A stretch of DNA of 64,000 bases from Escherichia coli (GTDB lineage: Bacteria > Pseudomonadota > Gammaproteobacteria > Enterobacterales > Enterobacteriaceae), in the NCBI RefSeq assembly GCF_003334335.1, contig NZ_QOWQ01000003.1. The stretch is one strand, 5' to 3'. The notes below the pieces were generated by a model. The model was not told the DNA's origin and made no database searches. It worked only from the letters and a program-made list of their open reading frames with translations. The position numbers and the translations under genes are program-made. Below, piece by piece: positions 43,589 through 50,962 of the stretch. Within the stretch, counting starts at the first letter, position 1. Every line of letters begins with the position of its first letter.

Positions 43589-44299
43589 ATGAACGCTGAG
43601 CGTAAATTTCTTTTTGCCTGTCTTATTTTTGCGCTGGTCATTTACGCTATCCACGCTTTCGGTTTATTCGATCTGCTCACCGATTTACCCCACTTACAGA
43701 CACTCATCCGCCAGAGCGGATTTTTCGGCTATAGCCTCTATATTCTGTTATTCATCATTGCCACCCTCTTGCTGTTACCAGGAAGCATACTGGTGATCGC
43801 GGGAGGAATAGTTTTTGGCCCGCTCTTAGGGACACTACTCTCATTAATTGCCGCCACGCTGGCCTCCTCGTGCTCATTCCTGCTGGCGCGCTGGCTGGGA
43901 CGTGATTTACTGCTGAAATACGTTGGCCATAGCAATACCTTCCAGGCCATTGAAAAAGGCATTGCGCGTAACGGTATTGATTTTCTTATTCTGACCCGCT
44001 TAATCCCGTTGTTTCCTTACAATATTCAAAATTACGCTTACGGATTAACCACAATCGCCTTCTGGCCTTATACCCTTATTTCGGCACTCACGACCCTACC
44101 CGGTATTGTTATTTATACCGTGATGGCAAGCGATCTCGCCAATGAAGGCATTACGCTGCGCTTTATTTTACAACTCTGTCTGGCGGGCCTGGCGCTGTTT
44201 ATTCTCGTCCAGCTCGCAAAACTCTACGCCCGACACAAACATGTGGATCTGTCTGCTTCGCGCCGCAGCCCACTTACTCACCCAAAAAATGAAGGATAG
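43589..44299 (+). CDS. ydjX: DedA/TVP38-family inner membrane protein YdjX
   Basis: ORF track 252 aa trimmed to MNAERKFLFACLIFALVIYAI... (236 aa); multi-pass, shares motifs with YdjZ. Confidence 0.85.
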   Translation: MNAERKFLFACLIFALVIYAIHAFGLFDLLTDLPHLQTLIRQSGFFGYSLYILLFIIATLLLLPGSILVIAGGIVFGPLLGTLLSLIAATLASSCSFLLARWLGRDLLLKYVGHSNTFQAIEKGIARNGIDFLILTRLIPLFPYNIQNYAYGLTTIAFWPYTLISALTTLPGIVIYTVMASDLANEGITLRFILQLCLAGLALFILVQLAKLYARHKHVDLSASRRSPLTHPKNEG

Positions 44300-44303
44300 A
44301 ACG

Positions 44304-44981
44304 ATGTTGCAACATTATTCAGTGTCATGGAAAAAAGGACTGGCTGCACTCTGTTTACTGGCTGTTGCTGGGCTTAGCGGCTGCGATCAACAAGAGAATG
44401 CGGCGGCAAAAGTGGAATACGACGGACTTTCGAACAGCCAACCGCTGCGTGTCGATGCCAATAACCATACGGTAACCATGCTGGTGCAAATTAATGGTCG
44501 TTTCCTCACCGACGACACTCGTCACGGTATTGTGTTTAAAGATGGCTCCAACGGACATAAATCGCTGTTTATGGGTTATGCGACCCCGAAAGCATTTTAT
44601 GAAGCCCTGAAAGAGGCAGGTGGTACGCCGGGCGAAAACATGACGATGGATAATAAAGAAACGACTCATGTCACAGGCAGCAAACTGGATATTTCGGTCA
44701 ACTGGCAAGGGGCGGCAAAAGCGTATTCCTTCGATGAAGTGATTGTTGACAGTAATGGCAAGAAACTGGACATGCGCTTTGGCGGTAATTTAACGGCAGC
44801 AGAAGAGAAGAAAGCGGGTTGCCTGGTGTGTCTGGATAGCTGCCCGGTCGGCATCGTCAGCAATGCAACATACACTTATGGTGCGGTTGAAAAACGTGGT
44901 GAAGTTAAATTCAAAGGCAATGCCTCAGTTCTCCCGGCGGATAACACGCTGGCAACGGTTACCTTTAAAATCGCCGAATAA
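44304..44981 (+). CDS. ydjY: Putative lipoprotein YdjY
   Basis: Track ORF 44142..44981 trimmed to MLQHYSVSWKKGLAALCLLAVAGLSGC (lipobox LSGC); atg at 44304 preceded by aagga; 225 aa. Confidence 0.85.
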   Translation: MLQHYSVSWKKGLAALCLLAVAGLSGCDQQENAAAKVEYDGLSNSQPLRVDANNHTVTMLVQINGRFLTDDTRHGIVFKDGSNGHKSLFMGYATPKAFYEALKEAGGTPGENMTMDNKETTHVTGSKLDISVNWQGAAKAYSFDEVIVDSNGKKLDMRFGGNLTAAEEKKAGCLVCLDSCPVGIVSNATYTYGAVEKRGEVKFKGNASVLPADNTLATVTFKIAE

Positions 44982-44995
44982 AGCCAGGATAAAGG

Positions 44996-48935: not shown

Positions 48936-49588
48936 TGCTCTGCGTGAAAAATGTTTCGCTACGTTTACCAGAAAGCCGCTTGCTGACAAACGTTAACTTT
49001 ACGGTGGATAAAGGTGACATTGTCACGTTAATGGGGCCGTCTGGCTGTGGAAAATCCACTCTGTTTTCATGGATGATTGGTGCACTGGCCGAACAGTTTT
49101 CTTGTACAGGTGAGCTATGGCTCAATGAGCAACGGATTGACATCCTACCCACCGCACAGCGTCAGATTGGCATTCTTTTTCAGGATGCACTGTTATTTGA
49201 CCAGTTCAGTGTCGGGCAAAATTTACTGCTGGCGCTACCGGCGACACTTAAAGGGAATGCCCGACGTAATGCCGTGAATGATGCACTTGAGCGTTCAGGC
49301 CTTGAGGGAGCTTTCCATCAGGATCCTGCCACTTTGTCTGGCGGTCAGCGAGCGCGCGTTGCTCTACTACGCGCCCTTCTCGCCCAACCAAAAGCGTTAC
49401 TCCTGGATGAGCCATTCAGCCGTCTTGATGTGGCTCTGCGCGATAATTTTCGCCAGTGGGTGTTCAGCGAAGTTCGCGCCCTGGCGATCCCCGTCGTTCA
49501 GGTAACGCACGATCTCCAGGATGTTCCTGCTGATAGTTCTGTTCTGGATATGGCGCAGTGGTCAGAAAATTACAACAAACTGCGATAA
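48935..49588 (+). CDS. ynjD: ABC transporter ATP-binding protein YnjD
   Basis: Track ORF 48848..49588 trimmed to MLCVKNVSLRLPESRLL... (217 aa); Walker A GPSGCGKST and signature LSGGQRARV; TAATG overlap with ynjC. Confidence 0.88.
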   Translation: MLCVKNVSLRLPESRLLTNVNFTVDKGDIVTLMGPSGCGKSTLFSWMIGALAEQFSCTGELWLNEQRIDILPTAQRQIGILFQDALLFDQFSVGQNLLLALPATLKGNARRNAVNDALERSGLEGAFHQDPATLSGGQRARVALLRALLAQPKALLLDEPFSRLDVALRDNFRQWVFSEVRALAIPVVQVTHDLQDVPADSSVLDMAQWSENYNKLR

Positions 49589-49654
49589 CGCAAAGTTTTT
49601 CTCAATGCGTCAGTTCAGAATGGCGCACTCAAAACTACAATGTCGGGATTTTCG

Positions 49655-50962
49655 ATGAAACGTGTTTCTCAAATGACCGCGCTGGCAATGGCTTTAGGGC
49701 TGGCTTGCGCTTCTTCGTGGGCCGCTGAACTGGCGAAGCCTCTTACACTTGACCAGCTTCAACAACAAAATGGCAAAGCGATAGATACTCGCCCCAGCGC
49801 GTTTTATAACGGCTGGCCACAAACCTTAAATGGCCCTTCTGGTCATGAACCTGCCGCCTTAAACCTCTCTGCCAGCTGGCTTGACAAAATGAGCACCGAA
49901 CAGCTCAACGCGTGGATCAAGCAACATAACCTGAAAACCGATGCTCCGGTGGCGCTGTACGGTAATGACAAAGATGTCGACGCCGTCAAAACGCGACTGC
50001 AAAAAGCAGGTTTAACGCATATCTCCATCCTGAGTGACGCGCTAAGCGAACCTTCCCGTCTGCAAAAACTGCCGCATTTTGAGCAGCTGGTTTATCCGCA
50101 ATGGCTGCACGACCTGCAACAAGGTAAAGAGGTTACGGCGAAACCTGCCGGTGACTGGAAAGTCATTGAAGCGGCCTGGGGCGCTCCTAAGCTTTACCTT
50201 ATCAGCCATATTCCCGGCGCTGACTACATCGATACCAACGAAGTGGAAAGTGAACCGCTGTGGAACAAAGTTTCTGATGAACAACTAAAAGCGATGCTGG
50301 CAAAACACGGCATTCGCCATGACACCACGGTCATTCTGTATGGGCGTGACGTATACGCTGCAGCGCGTGTGGCGCAGATTATGCTTTATGCTGGCGTGAA
50401 AGATGTGCGCCTGCTGGATGGCGGCTGGCAAACCTGGTCCGACGCGGGACTGCCTGTTGAGCGCGGAACGCCACCGAAAGTGAAAGCGGAACCGGATTTC
50501 GGCGTGAAGATCCCGGCACAACCGCAGTTGATGCTCGATATGGAACAGGCCCGTGGACTGCTGCATCGCCAGGATGCATCGCTGGTGAGCATTCGTTCGT
50601 GGCCAGAATTTATCGGTACGACCAGCGGTTACAGCTATATTAAACCAAAAGGTGAAATAGCCGGCGCACGTTGGGGACACGCTGGTAGCGACTCGACGCA
50701 TATGGAAGATTTTCATAACCCGGATGGCACCATGCGCAGCGCCGATGATATTACCGCTATGTGGAAAGCGTGGAATATCAAACCAGAGCAGCAAGTTTCA
50801 TTCTACTGCGGCACCGGCTGGCGCGCGTCCGAAACCTTTATGTACACACGCGCCATGGGTTGGAAGAATGTTTCCGTGTATGACGGCGGCTGGTACGAAT
50901 GGAGCAGCGATCCAAAAAATCCGGTAGCAACCGGTGAACGCGGCCCGGACAGTAGCAAATAA
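49655..50962 (+). CDS. ynjE: Periplasmic multi-domain rhodanese (thiosulfate/3-mercaptopyruvate sulfurtransferase-like) YnjE
   Basis: ORF track 440 aa trimmed to MKRVSQMTALAMALGLACASSWAAE (signal peptide); rhodanese active-site loop FYCGTGWRASE near the C-terminus. Confidence 0.9.
   Translation: MKRVSQMTALAMALGLACASSWAAELAKPLTLDQLQQQNGKAIDTRPSAFYNGWPQTLNGPSGHEPAALNLSASWLDKMSTEQLNAWIKQHNLKTDAPVALYGNDKDVDAVKTRLQKAGLTHISILSDALSEPSRLQKLPHFEQLVYPQWLHDLQQGKEVTAKPAGDWKVIEAAWGAPKLYLISHIPGADYIDTNEVESEPLWNKVSDEQLKAMLAKHGIRHDTTVILYGRDVYAAARVAQIMLYAGVKDVRLLDGGWQTWSDAGLPVERGTPPKVKAEPDFGVKIPAQPQLMLDMEQARGLLHRQDASLVSIRSWPEFIGTTSGYSYIKPKGEIAGARWGHAGSDSTHMEDFHNPDGTMRSADDITAMWKAWNIKPEQQVSFYCGTGWRASETFMYTRAMGWKNVSVYDGGWYEWSSDPKNPVATGERGPDSSK

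Follow-up and report, generated by a model that had tools for sequence, protein, structure and literature searches.

Results

Organization of the cluster

We analysed the ydjXYZ-ynjABCD-ynjE gene cluster of Escherichia coli, together with the convergent gene ynjF, in a window of 64,000 nucleotides (the whole stretch of DNA under study, from contig NZ_QOWQ01000003.1). The 7.4-kb stretch that holds the cluster is E. coli chromosome and is 100% identical to several complete genomes; the cluster region was found in 5425 of 5426 complete E. coli genomes. With gene coordinates carried over from the RefSeq annotation to the window, the eight genes from ydjX to ynjE all lie on the + strand, and none contains an internal stop codon. 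The first three encode an inner-membrane protein of the DedA superfamily (ydjX, 43589-44299; TVP38/TMEM64, COG0398 type), an exported lipoprotein with a YdjY domain (ydjY, 44304-44981; PF27149) and a second COG0398 DedA protein (ydjZ, 44996-45703). They are followed by ynjA (45703-46251), which encodes a CMD/AhpD-family protein, by the genes for the periplasmic substrate-binding protein (ynjB, 46261-47427), the fused double permease of 511 residues (ynjC, 47400-48935) and the ATPase (ynjD, 48935-49588) of an ATP-binding cassette (ABC) importer, and by ynjE (49655-50962), which encodes an exported three-domain rhodanese. A first-pass annotation of this DNA, made from the sequence alone, had read eight co-directional genes: a pair for TVP38/DedA proteins, one each for a lipoprotein and a CMD/AhpD-like protein, a full set for an ABC importer and one for a rhodanese with a signal peptide and several domains. 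Both the orientation and the family assignments were correct.

The junctions from ydjX to ynjE measure, in order, +4, +14, -1 (TGATG), +9, -28, -1 (TAATG) and +66 nt, in exact agreement with the four that the annotation had quoted (the 4-nt gap at ydjX/ydjY, TGATG at ydjZ/ynjA, the 28-nt overlap at ynjB/ynjC and TAATG at ynjC/ynjD). The 28-nt overlap is also kept in Kluyvera and in one Salmonella-type genome. This tight spacing shows co-translation of the cluster genes; because short gaps and overlaps of 1 or 4 nt are ordinary within E. coli operons, the geometry is not remarkable by itself.

The eight-gene boundary appears too narrow. We propose that ynjF (50971-51591, - strand), which the annotation had left out, is part of the same module, as it recurs beside ynjB homologues (see below). 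Its product is a membrane enzyme of the CDP-alcohol phosphatidyltransferase family: the catalytic motif DGLDGALARRRELTDAGGFLDISLD (D-x2-DG-x2-AR-x7-8-G-x3-D-x3-D) is intact at residue 65, and PF01066 was found on the Kluyvera and Salmonella-type orthologues. None of the curated synthase cut-offs is reached by YnjF, which scores 63.2 and 41.9 bits against cut-offs of 180 and 170 for phosphatidylinositol-phosphate (PIP) and archaetidylinositol-phosphate (AIP) synthases. In Kluyvera, ynjF shares 8 nt with a CMD gene on the other strand, whose product has 54% identity to YnjA, and the Salmonella-type genome has a CMD gene at the same position by ynjF. The stop codons of ynjE and ynjF are 8 nt apart in convergent orientation (50962-50971); beyond them, nudG (51678-52085, +) and ynjH (52051-52323, -) overlap by 35 nt, and both pairs were listed as overlapping-transcript 'excludon' candidates in a 2025 survey.

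Anaerobic control and co-expression

Myers et al. 2013 described ydjXYZ-ynjABCD as one operon that is directly activated by FNR from a site at -60.5, and ynjE as a unit of its own that FNR activates from a site at -41.5; published chromatin immunoprecipitation (ChIP) and expression data back the FNR control of the ydjX operon. The view of the cluster as one transcription block therefore holds for the seven genes from ydjX to ynjD, but not for ynjE. In the window, an FNR-box-like site, TTGAGAAAAATCAA, lies upstream of ydjX (43466-43479, +) with one mismatch to TTGAT-N4-ATCAA, and a -10-like TTATAC lies approximately 45 nt downstream of it; the box and the published FNR-dependent expression place ydjX in the FNR regulon. 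No FNR box with two or fewer mismatches was found in the 275 bp upstream of ynjE in this strain, and the assignment of ynjE to the regulon comes from the literature. The coordinate offset given for ynjE by Myers et al. 2013 falls inside ynjD, where nothing FNR-like was found, and these coordinates are probably ChIP peak positions. The 66-nt gap between ynjD and ynjE holds a promoter-like TTCAGA-16-TACAAT (49614-49641, +), identified by a consensus scan. A second FNR-like box with one mismatch, TTGATCCTGATAAA, is located at 52162-52175 inside ynjH, upstream of gdhA, and the whole window was only marginally enriched for FNR-like matches (45 observed versus 35 expected). An Rfam search for riboswitches and other RNAs over positions 43000-52000 gave no match at E <= 0.1.

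Published expression data link the cluster to selenium- and molybdenum-related genes. Sastry et al. 2021 found an uncharacterised iModulon that consists of exactly ydjXYZ-ynjABCD, yedEF, yjiLM and ynjE, with higher activity under anaerobic conditions and lower activity in fnr and arcA mutants, and proposed that it relates to molybdenum and selenium usage. In an O157:H7 time course, ydjY and ynjE rose alongside fdnG, ydfZ, ynfE and the nap genes, and ynjE fell together with yedE, yedF and ydfZ. E. coli genetic-interaction profiles clustered ynjABCDEFI with sufCDS. The first-pass annotation had held that no substrate or physiological role was established for the ensemble; this stands for the substrate, but FNR control, crystal structures of YnjE, a proposed role in molybdenum cofactor (Moco) synthesis, the clustering with suf genes and the iModulon have all been published.

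Cysteine motifs of the exported, membrane and cytoplasmic proteins

YdjY carries the leader LAVAGLSG-C24, and its LSGC lipobox (residues 21-24), noticed in the first pass, was confirmed; many homologues have an equivalent cysteine after a hydrophobic leader. Across the homologues only three cysteines are invariant, forming a CxxCxxxC triad (C173, C176 and C180). UniProt and JGI label YdjY a 4Fe-4S ferredoxin. We rejected this name: there are three cysteines and not four, the fold is not ferredoxin-like, and the leader is a Sec-type lipoprotein leader that lacks a twin-arginine motif. Matches to ferredoxins in the PDB reached only E 0.3-0.5 over about 25-40 residues, and a PDB sequence search found no solved structure of YdjY. 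A longer in-frame open reading frame (ORF) of 279 residues (44142-44981, with an ATG at 44142) overlaps the end of ydjX, and some database entries take this form (a Shigella entry is one) or a form of 246 residues; the position of the lipobox favours the start at 44304, which gives 225 residues.

The two DedA proteins share 26% identity. Their membership of COG0398 was indicated by the VTT_dom domain (PF09335) on the Kluyvera and Salmonella-type orthologues and by the RefSeq name TVP38/TMEM64, and the literature takes YdjZ as the representative of COG0398. In a set of 60 YdjZ sequences, approximately 70 positions reached 95% identity or more, among them C113 and C152 in the CRLLPF motif. Neither protein belongs to the UptA type, since YdjX and YdjZ score 27.5 and 36.4 bits against the UptA equivalog cut-off of 250. 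According to the literature, COG0398 proteins lack the conserved acidic and basic re-entrant-helix residues of undecaprenyl phosphate (UndP) flippases, are unlikely to be such flippases, are possibly phospholipid scramblases and resemble eukaryotic scramblases; they are most often fused to pyridine-nucleotide disulfide oxidoreductases.

YnjA belongs to the CMD/AhpD family, with PDB matches to PA0269, Atu0492, Bmp8 and AhpD at E 3e-9 to 2e-5 and with PF02627 on its orthologues. Its motif C73-x-C75-x2-C78 is common to E. coli and Kluyvera. The top NCBIfam match was a YciW-related (seleno)protein family, at 101 bits and below the cut-off.

YnjE is essentially identical to the crystal structures PDB 3IPO and 2WLR. 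It has a Sec-type leader, rhodanese domains and a catalytic cysteine in the loop CGTGWR (residues 385-390), as the first pass had read it. RefSeq names it a thiosulfate/3-mercaptopyruvate sulfurtransferase, but it scores 64 bits to the SseA model against a cut-off of 250, and the periplasmic protein has been reported to have poor or undetectable activity with thiosulfate or 3-mercaptopyruvate. Its next-best PDB matches, at E about 1e-88, were EanB-type sulfurtransferases, which have the SGY.Y and CGTGWR motifs in common with it; the active-site tyrosine aligned, whereas several EanB cysteines are not conserved. We found no histidine methyltransferase (EanA/EgtD) within the cluster. The ergothioneine literature counts YnjE among EanB-like enzymes that lack an assigned function and may use polysulfide to sulfurise heterocycles. 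YnjE has also been reported to enhance sulfur transfer for molybdopterin synthesis. We did not adopt a role as Moco sulfur donor, given that an ynjE deletion is normal for chlorate and 6-N-hydroxylaminopurine (HAP) and that the protein is periplasmic.

The ABC importer YnjBCD

The three proteins have the parts of a type I ABC importer: an exported binding protein, permease domains and an ATPase with Walker A (GPSGCGKS) and LSGGQ motifs. YnjB has a Sec-type signal peptide, scores 560 bits to NF008633, and its homologues carry PF13416/PF01547. The C-terminal half of YnjC gave weak matches to the PhnU, ModB and CysT permease models, Pfam BPD_transp_1 was only 'faint' on the Kluyvera orthologue, and Carnobacterium has a fused homologue of 556 residues. 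The matches of YnjD were of generic importer type, all below equivalog cut-offs.

No PDB sequence match to YnjB was found at E <= 0.01. Its AlphaFold model (predicted local distance difference test score, pLDDT, 85.9) has the fold of class D binding proteins, which were matched by Foldseek at E about 1e-14, but structure prediction allowed no ligand call, because polyamine, Fe3+, 2-aminoethylphosphonate, thiamine and sugar-phosphate binding proteins were matched equally, at 12-18% identity. JGI labels YnjB homologues 'putative thiamine' or 'spermidine/putrescine' binding proteins. Identity with the thiamine transporter ThiBPQ was rejected, as YnjD scores 130 bits against ThiQ cut-offs of 245-298 and TbpA is one of many fold neighbours of YnjB, at 14-15% identity. 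The invariant residues of YnjB are aromatic and acidic, with no conserved cysteine, which suggests a cationic or polar organic ligand and not a bare oxyanion.

A module conserved and fused across phyla

A scan of 100,044 species genomes with a YdjY alignment gave 95 confirmed matches, a lower bound because the search patterns were strict; 80 loci were kept, 74 of them non-enteric. The carriers are Escherichia, Citrobacter and a scatter of bacteria that are anaerobic or live in association with a host (Peptostreptococcus, Finegoldia, Gemella, Facklamia, Catonella, Clostridium, Campylobacter concisus, Sulfurospirillum, Desulfarculus and Syntrophs). YdjZ is a near-constant partner: a DedA protein of YdjZ/YdjX type lies beside YdjY in 66-70 of the 74 non-enteric loci, a pairing that spans Firmicutes, Campylobacterota, Desulfobacterota and Spirochaetia, and in most cases it is a YdjZ orthologue, with a score of 225-280 bits. 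In many phyla YdjY adjoins a YdjX-like gene or an HdrD-VTT fusion; the fusion partner of the DedA domain in Desulfobacterota is an HdrD-like Fe-S/CCG reductase, which matches NF045663 ('diclust_near_Sec'). Exported YnjE-like rhodaneses with the same motifs are found beside YdjY in Campylobacter, Catonella and a Peptostreptococcaceae metagenome-assembled genome (MAG). Natural fusions join YdjY to a rhodanese (P0392 and P0468), to a DedA protein (P0433) and to an OlsE-like lipid hydroxylase (P0483). Two further composite proteins were left unused as likely merged gene calls in E. coli-like sequences: P0122 (574 residues, from ENA; YnjA and YnjB, with PF02627 and PF13416) over a 9-nt gap, and P0362 (451 residues; YdjX and YdjY) over a 4-nt gap.

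In many lineages ydjY is followed by the gene for a small protein of 125-155 residues with approximately four transmembrane segments and a WLEMR motif (L058:10735-11157 and L062:3311-3688), which in many Firmicutes forms an N-terminal extension of YdjZ proteins of approximately 390-420 residues. It has no NCBIfam match, is unrelated to YnjA and has no E. coli counterpart. A search of seven Firmicutes loci with Rfam returned only tRNA, a 5S rRNA fragment and a marginal Clostridiales-1 RNA (RF01699); the last scored 49.5 bits against a gathering threshold of 48, lies exactly in the ydjY-ydjZ gap of Catonella morbi (L036:10571-10678, +) and could be a cis-regulatory element of that cluster.

The importer and the phosphatidyltransferase also travel with these genes. 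YnjB-like genes (185-251 bits) with YnjC- and YnjD-like genes adjoin YdjY-YdjZ in 9 non-enteric loci, and in Clostridium punense and Firmicutes MAGs a YnjF-like gene is the immediate neighbour of the ynjB homologue; the association of YnjB- and YnjF-like genes across loci was significant (p = 5e-4). The best-scoring characterised relatives of the transferases near Firmicutes ynjB homologues are PIP and AIP synthases, with scores, including that of YnjF, of 63-102 bits against cut-offs of 170-180. Carnobacterium has a co-directional run of genes for a binding protein, a fused permease, an ATPase, a VTT/DedA protein, a CDP-alcohol phosphatidyltransferase and a MerA-like disulfide reductase; this importer-DedA-transferase-reductase set recurs in Staphylococcus, and Sutcliffiella has the ABC genes with the transferase. 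In one Staphylococcus contig of 19 kb (L089) the cluster occurs with a resolvase, a SulP-family transporter, a universal stress protein and a Crp/Fnr-type regulator, and it may be on a mobile element. The constant parts are an exported cysteine protein, a COG0398 DedA protein and a cytoplasmic disulfide reductase, joined in many lineages by the ABC importer and the CDP-alcohol phosphatidyltransferase.

These neighbourhoods bear on whether the E. coli genes belong together at all. They could be unrelated neighbours, co-transcribed by chance adjacency: a thiamine- or polyamine-like importer, housekeeping YdjX and YdjZ, and a Moco sulfurtransferase. The JGI names of the YnjB homologues, the likeness of the YnjB fold to those families and the reported boost to molybdopterin sulfur transfer agree with such an arrangement, but we consider it very unlikely and already disfavoured, because these families recur together, also as fusions, in distantly related phyla, neither YnjD nor YnjB reaches the cut-off of ThiQ or of other equivalogs, YnjB matches no solved binding protein by sequence, and YnjE is a periplasmic protein that is nearly inactive with its nominal substrates and whose deletion leaves chlorate and HAP responses normal. 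All nine E. coli genes very probably serve one process.

That process might be a lipid head-group pathway, in which YnjBCD would import a polar alcohol, YnjF would couple it to CDP-diacylglycerol and the DedA proteins would carry the lipid into the outer leaflet; YdjY and YnjE would modify or use the lipid, the reductases would have a maintenance role, and import of sulfur or selenium would not be the purpose. The constancy of importer, phosphatidyltransferase and DedA protein in enterics, Carnobacterium, Staphylococcus and Firmicutes MAGs, the Sutcliffiella pair, the intact catalytic motif of YnjF and the resemblance of COG0398 proteins to scramblases, without the UndP-flippase residues, fit this pathway, as do MprF-like 'flippase-like domain' proteins in five YdjY loci, the lipid hydroxylase-YdjY fusion and other YdjY clusters with a GT2 glycosyltransferase and a kinase-nucleotidyltransferase in place of YnjF. 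However, it leaves several features unexplained: that YdjY is fused to rhodaneses and lies close to SelD and YedF genes (see below), that cysteines are invariant, that disulfide reductases accompany the cluster and that it is co-expressed with yedEF. YnjF is below the synthase cut-offs, and no unusual E. coli phospholipid tied to ynjF was found in the literature searched. TIGR04283 (the GT2 enzyme) and YnjF never occurred together, but this alternation was not significant (p = 0.33). As the purpose of the whole module, a lipid pathway seems unlikely.

The reductases raise another explanation, in which the module would work outward, supplying periplasmic reducing power or detoxifying reactive sulfur, selenium or soft metals, as a disulfide-import/thiol-export shuttle or a Mer-like detoxification relay and not for nutrient acquisition. 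MerA-like, HdrD-like and CMD reductases are constant partners, the Facklamia cluster contains CcdA/DsbD-like and ResA-like proteins, BaeR overexpression has been reported to induce ynjABCD mildly (probably indirectly), and a DedA protein of Cupriavidus metallidurans has been linked to selenite resistance and uptake. We regard this explanation as quite unlikely, because the genes are controlled by FNR and anaerobiosis, with yedEF and formate dehydrogenase genes, rather than by a regulator of stress responses (a search for a BaeR site found none); an ABC architecture that depends on a substrate-binding protein implies import; and metal- or arsenic-resistance genes do not recur nearby.

Selenium genes and the ArsS set beside YdjY

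Of the 74 loci, 7 have SelD no more than 10 kb from YdjY, whereas 0.38 would be expected for a single-copy gene. The naive P value is about 1e-7, or about 6e-4 when the loci are collapsed to four independent lineages, and the SelD calls were confirmed by TIGR00476 (352-365 bits). The SelD-linked loci come from Facklamia and four Desulfobacterota. The gene order is HdrD-VTT, YdjY, SelD in a Syntrophaceae MAG and SelD, YedF, a small ORF, YdjY in a Desulfobacterales MAG; a Desulfocapsaceae MAG has YedF, a selenocysteine-lyase-like desulfurase and SelD near YdjY, and an island in Facklamia holds the YdjX/Y/Z genes with SelD, YedF and SelB. YedF is near YdjY in 9 of the 74 loci. An oxidoreductase that matches TIGR03169 ('Nterm_to_SelD'), at a score slightly under the curated cut-off, adjoins the clusters of Carnobacterium and Staphylococcus. 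This non-random adjacency to SelD and YedF, together with the E. coli iModulon that contains yedEF, associates the cluster with selenium utilisation.

PrdB-like ORFs in the YdjY clusters of Facklamia and Bacillus benzoevorans (L078:3693-4160, L075:4879-5346 and L063:13115-13591) end at a TGA codon beyond which the frame is conserved (SPG-U-YICHQSVGLIQ). From this sequence pattern we predict that they are selenoproteins of the selenoprotein-B family in an unfamiliar context.

A second recurring set consists of ArsS (TIGR04167, 337-450 bits, above the cut-off), which occurs in YdjY/DedA clusters of C. concisus, Facklamia, Thermincola and Syntrophs (loci L062, L078, L019, L077, L047 and L048), accompanied by TIGR04282 fused to a kinase-like domain and by the GT2 enzyme TIGR04283; rhodanese and YedF genes are among the neighbours of this set. 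Adjacency of SelD to YdjY was statistically independent of ArsS. ArsS and YnjB showed zero overlap across loci, again not significantly (p = 0.58), and an alternation between de novo (ArsS) and salvage (YnjB) versions, which lacks statistical support, is a hint at most.

The ArsS set could mean that the module imports or processes organo-arsenic compounds of the arsenosugar type. A cysteine triad, as in YdjY, is in general a classical As(III) site, nucleoside-hydrolase-like genes occur in seven YdjY loci, and one Finegoldia contig carries ArsA, ACR3 and ArsC 8 kb from YdjY. However, no ACR3 or ArsC homologue was found within 10 kb of YdjY in the 80 loci, the E. coli cluster contains neither ArsS nor the two transferases and is co-expressed with yedEF and not with ars genes, and the 'arsenosugar' names were carried over from a cyanobacterial enzyme. 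Given the lack of recurring arsenic-resistance genes in the neighbourhood, and since members of TIGR04167 are often selenoproteins themselves, we rank an arsenic role low, as extremely improbable; the NCBI name 'arsenosugar biosynthesis' may be over-extended for these anaerobes.

Discussion

The interpretation that we favour, tentatively, is that the cluster forms an anaerobic envelope relay that may move a thiol-reactive chalcogen, sulfane sulfur or, most specifically, selenium. A cysteine relay is suggested by the invariant cysteines of YdjY and YnjA, the near-invariant cysteines of YdjZ and the catalytic cysteine of YnjE. The first-pass annotation had suggested, as a hypothesis, an envelope module for the handling and import of sulfur or redox compounds; the neighbourhoods, fusions and published co-expression speak indirectly for a module of this kind, but point to selenium as a more specific lead than sulfur in general.

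From the gene structure, motifs, residue conservation, neighbourhoods and fusions described above, with FNR control and yedEF co-expression taken from the literature, we infer, as follows, which element is moved, in which direction and by which biochemical steps. The ydjX-ynjD operon, ynjE and the convergent ynjF would constitute one anaerobically induced envelope system, and selenium delivered by it would serve anaerobic selenoenzymes, in E. coli the formate dehydrogenases. Outside the membrane, YnjE (Cys385) and YdjY (Cys173/176/180) would capture the element as a persulfide, perselenide or selenotrisulfide. The membrane step would be carried out by YdjZ and YdjX, with Cys113 and Cys152 of YdjZ at the putative substrate site, and on the cytoplasmic side the CxCxxC protein YnjA would release the element by reduction, a place that HdrD-like or MerA-like reductases might take in other lineages. 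YnjBCD would import a polar organic molecule, which YnjF probably couples to CDP-diacylglycerol; the product could be a lipid-linked carrier or co-substrate for the DedA step, or the importer could provide a second, organic entry route.

Several observations weigh against this relay. No selenium phenotype of these genes has been reported for E. coli in the literature that we searched for them with selenite. The selenocysteine machinery of the Facklamia island could serve only the predicted selenoproteins of that island, and the TIGR03169 oxidoreductase ('Nterm_to_SelD') beside the Carnobacterium and Staphylococcus clusters scores just below its curated cut-off. The two DedA proteins already connected with selenium, SelF of Campylobacter jejuni and the C. 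metallidurans protein, probably belong to another subfamily, COG0586 (from the literature for the latter and by our own assignment for SelF). YdjY itself is absent from Kluyvera and the Salmonella-type genome, in which ydjX-ydjZ-ynjBCD-ynjE are present. The invariant pocket residues of YnjB do not suit selenite or sulfide, its modelled fold points to no ligand, and it is not obvious what YnjF would do in a relay of thiols alone. Clusters of YnjB, YnjF, DedA and reductase genes also occur in aerobic Bacillaceae and Staphylococcus, many of which are not known to use selenium, so that the ABC half may be concerned with something more general. Finally, similar genetic-interaction profiles of adjacent genes can be an artefact of chromosomal linkage, and mutual transcription interference between ynjE and ynjF, if real, would complicate their joint action.

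The lipid pathway and the cysteine relay are not exclusive. Combined, they would give a dedicated high-affinity selenium uptake system of E. coli based on a lipid-linked carrier cycle, a combination that we consider decidedly improbable. In such a cycle YnjBCD would import a head-group precursor, YnjF would make a phosphatidyl-X and YdjZ and YdjX would flip it; YnjE and YdjY would load selenium or sulfane sulfur onto the carrier, or hand it over at the DedA site, and YnjA would unload it reductively for SelD. Clusters with ArsS, the GT2 glycosyltransferase and the kinase-nucleotidyltransferase would represent a de novo, polyprenyl- or glyco-linked version, and many 'arsenosugar biosynthesis' annotations in anaerobes would then really be about selenium.

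E. coli has been a model for selenoprotein synthesis for decades. According to two reviews, of 2022 and 2026, a specific selenium transporter of high affinity has yet to be identified in any prokaryote, and the 2015 comparative-genomics study that proposed YedE/YedF does not mention DedA proteins, YdjY or these ABC genes. What was already known is a set of annotated y-genes, partly studied, with a link to selenium and molybdenum suggested from co-expression; new here are the extension to ynjF, the recognition of a cross-phylum module with fusions and invariant cysteines, the genomic links to SelD and YedF, and a testable mechanism. The tie to selenium genes comes from two independent sources, namely the yedEF co-expression in E. 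coli and the SelD and YedF neighbours of YdjY across phyla. If selenium is indeed what the relay moves, it would fill the long-standing gap of dedicated selenium uptake, and nine y-genes would gain functions, as would the YdjY domain, for whose fold no close relative has been solved. The COG0398 DedA proteins, which form the DedA subfamily nearest to TMEM41B and VMP1 of eukaryotes, would receive their first physiological role, and their frequent fusion to disulfide reductases would be explained. The 'arsenosugar' annotations of ArsS, TIGR04282 and TIGR04283 in anaerobes would also call for a fresh look. Should the element not be selenium, an ABC importer, a CDP-alcohol phosphatidyltransferase, a DedA protein and a disulfide reductase would still make up a widespread, uncharacterised membrane pathway that is open to study in E. 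coli, Staphylococcus and Bacillaceae.

Comparison with characterised systems places the individual parts. YnjBCD resembles ThiBPQ, PhnSTUV, AfuABC and PotABCD in the class D fold of its binding protein, and ThiPQ and PhnTU in its fused permease and short ATPase, but it differs from them in its low identity (12-18%), in scores far below their cut-offs and in its YnjF, DedA and reductase partners. PIP and AIP synthases are the best-scoring characterised relatives of YnjF, with which they share the catalytic motif; E. coli is not a known producer of inositol lipids. The ArsS/TIGR04282/TIGR04283 set ('rSAM-selenodomain') is interleaved with YdjY, YdjZ, YdjX and a YnjE-like rhodanese in C. concisus and Facklamia, but is absent from E. 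coli. EanB, the anaerobic ergothioneine synthase (which we take to be the protein of PDB 6KTV and 6H98), comes closest to YnjE among characterised homologues and agrees with it in the CGTGWR loop and in the arrangement of three domains, whereas YnjE is exported and has no EanA/EgtD partner in the cluster.

For the relay as a whole, the Mer system (MerP-MerT-MerA) offers an analogy of mechanism only: an exported cysteine protein passes its thiophilic cargo to a cysteine-bearing membrane protein and on to a cytoplasmic enzyme of the disulfide-reductase family, and MerA-like reductases adjoin or are fused with COG0398 DedA proteins, but there is no homology to MerP or MerT, and FNR control and the SelD, YedF and rhodanese neighbours set the E. 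coli cluster apart. SelF (Cj1168c) of C. jejuni, which is needed for formate dehydrogenase only at nanomolar selenite, and the C. metallidurans protein belong to the same DedA superfamily, and the nanomolar-selenite phenotype of the selF mutant is the one predicted here; unlike YdjX and YdjZ (COG0398), they are probably COG0586 proteins, and YdjY, rhodanese or ABC partners have not been described for them. The putative selenium transporter pair YedE/YedF (FdhT/FdhU) and the related thiosulfate uptake system YeeE/YeeD (TsuA/TsuB) likewise combine a cysteine-bearing membrane protein with a small sulfur-carrier partner. The genes of the former lie beside SelD in many genomes and have their iModulon in common with the E. 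coli cluster. The YeeE/YedE and TusA-like families are, however, unrelated to DedA, the YdjY domain, rhodanese and CMD, and to such a pair the E. coli module adds an ABC importer and a CDP-alcohol phosphatidyltransferase.

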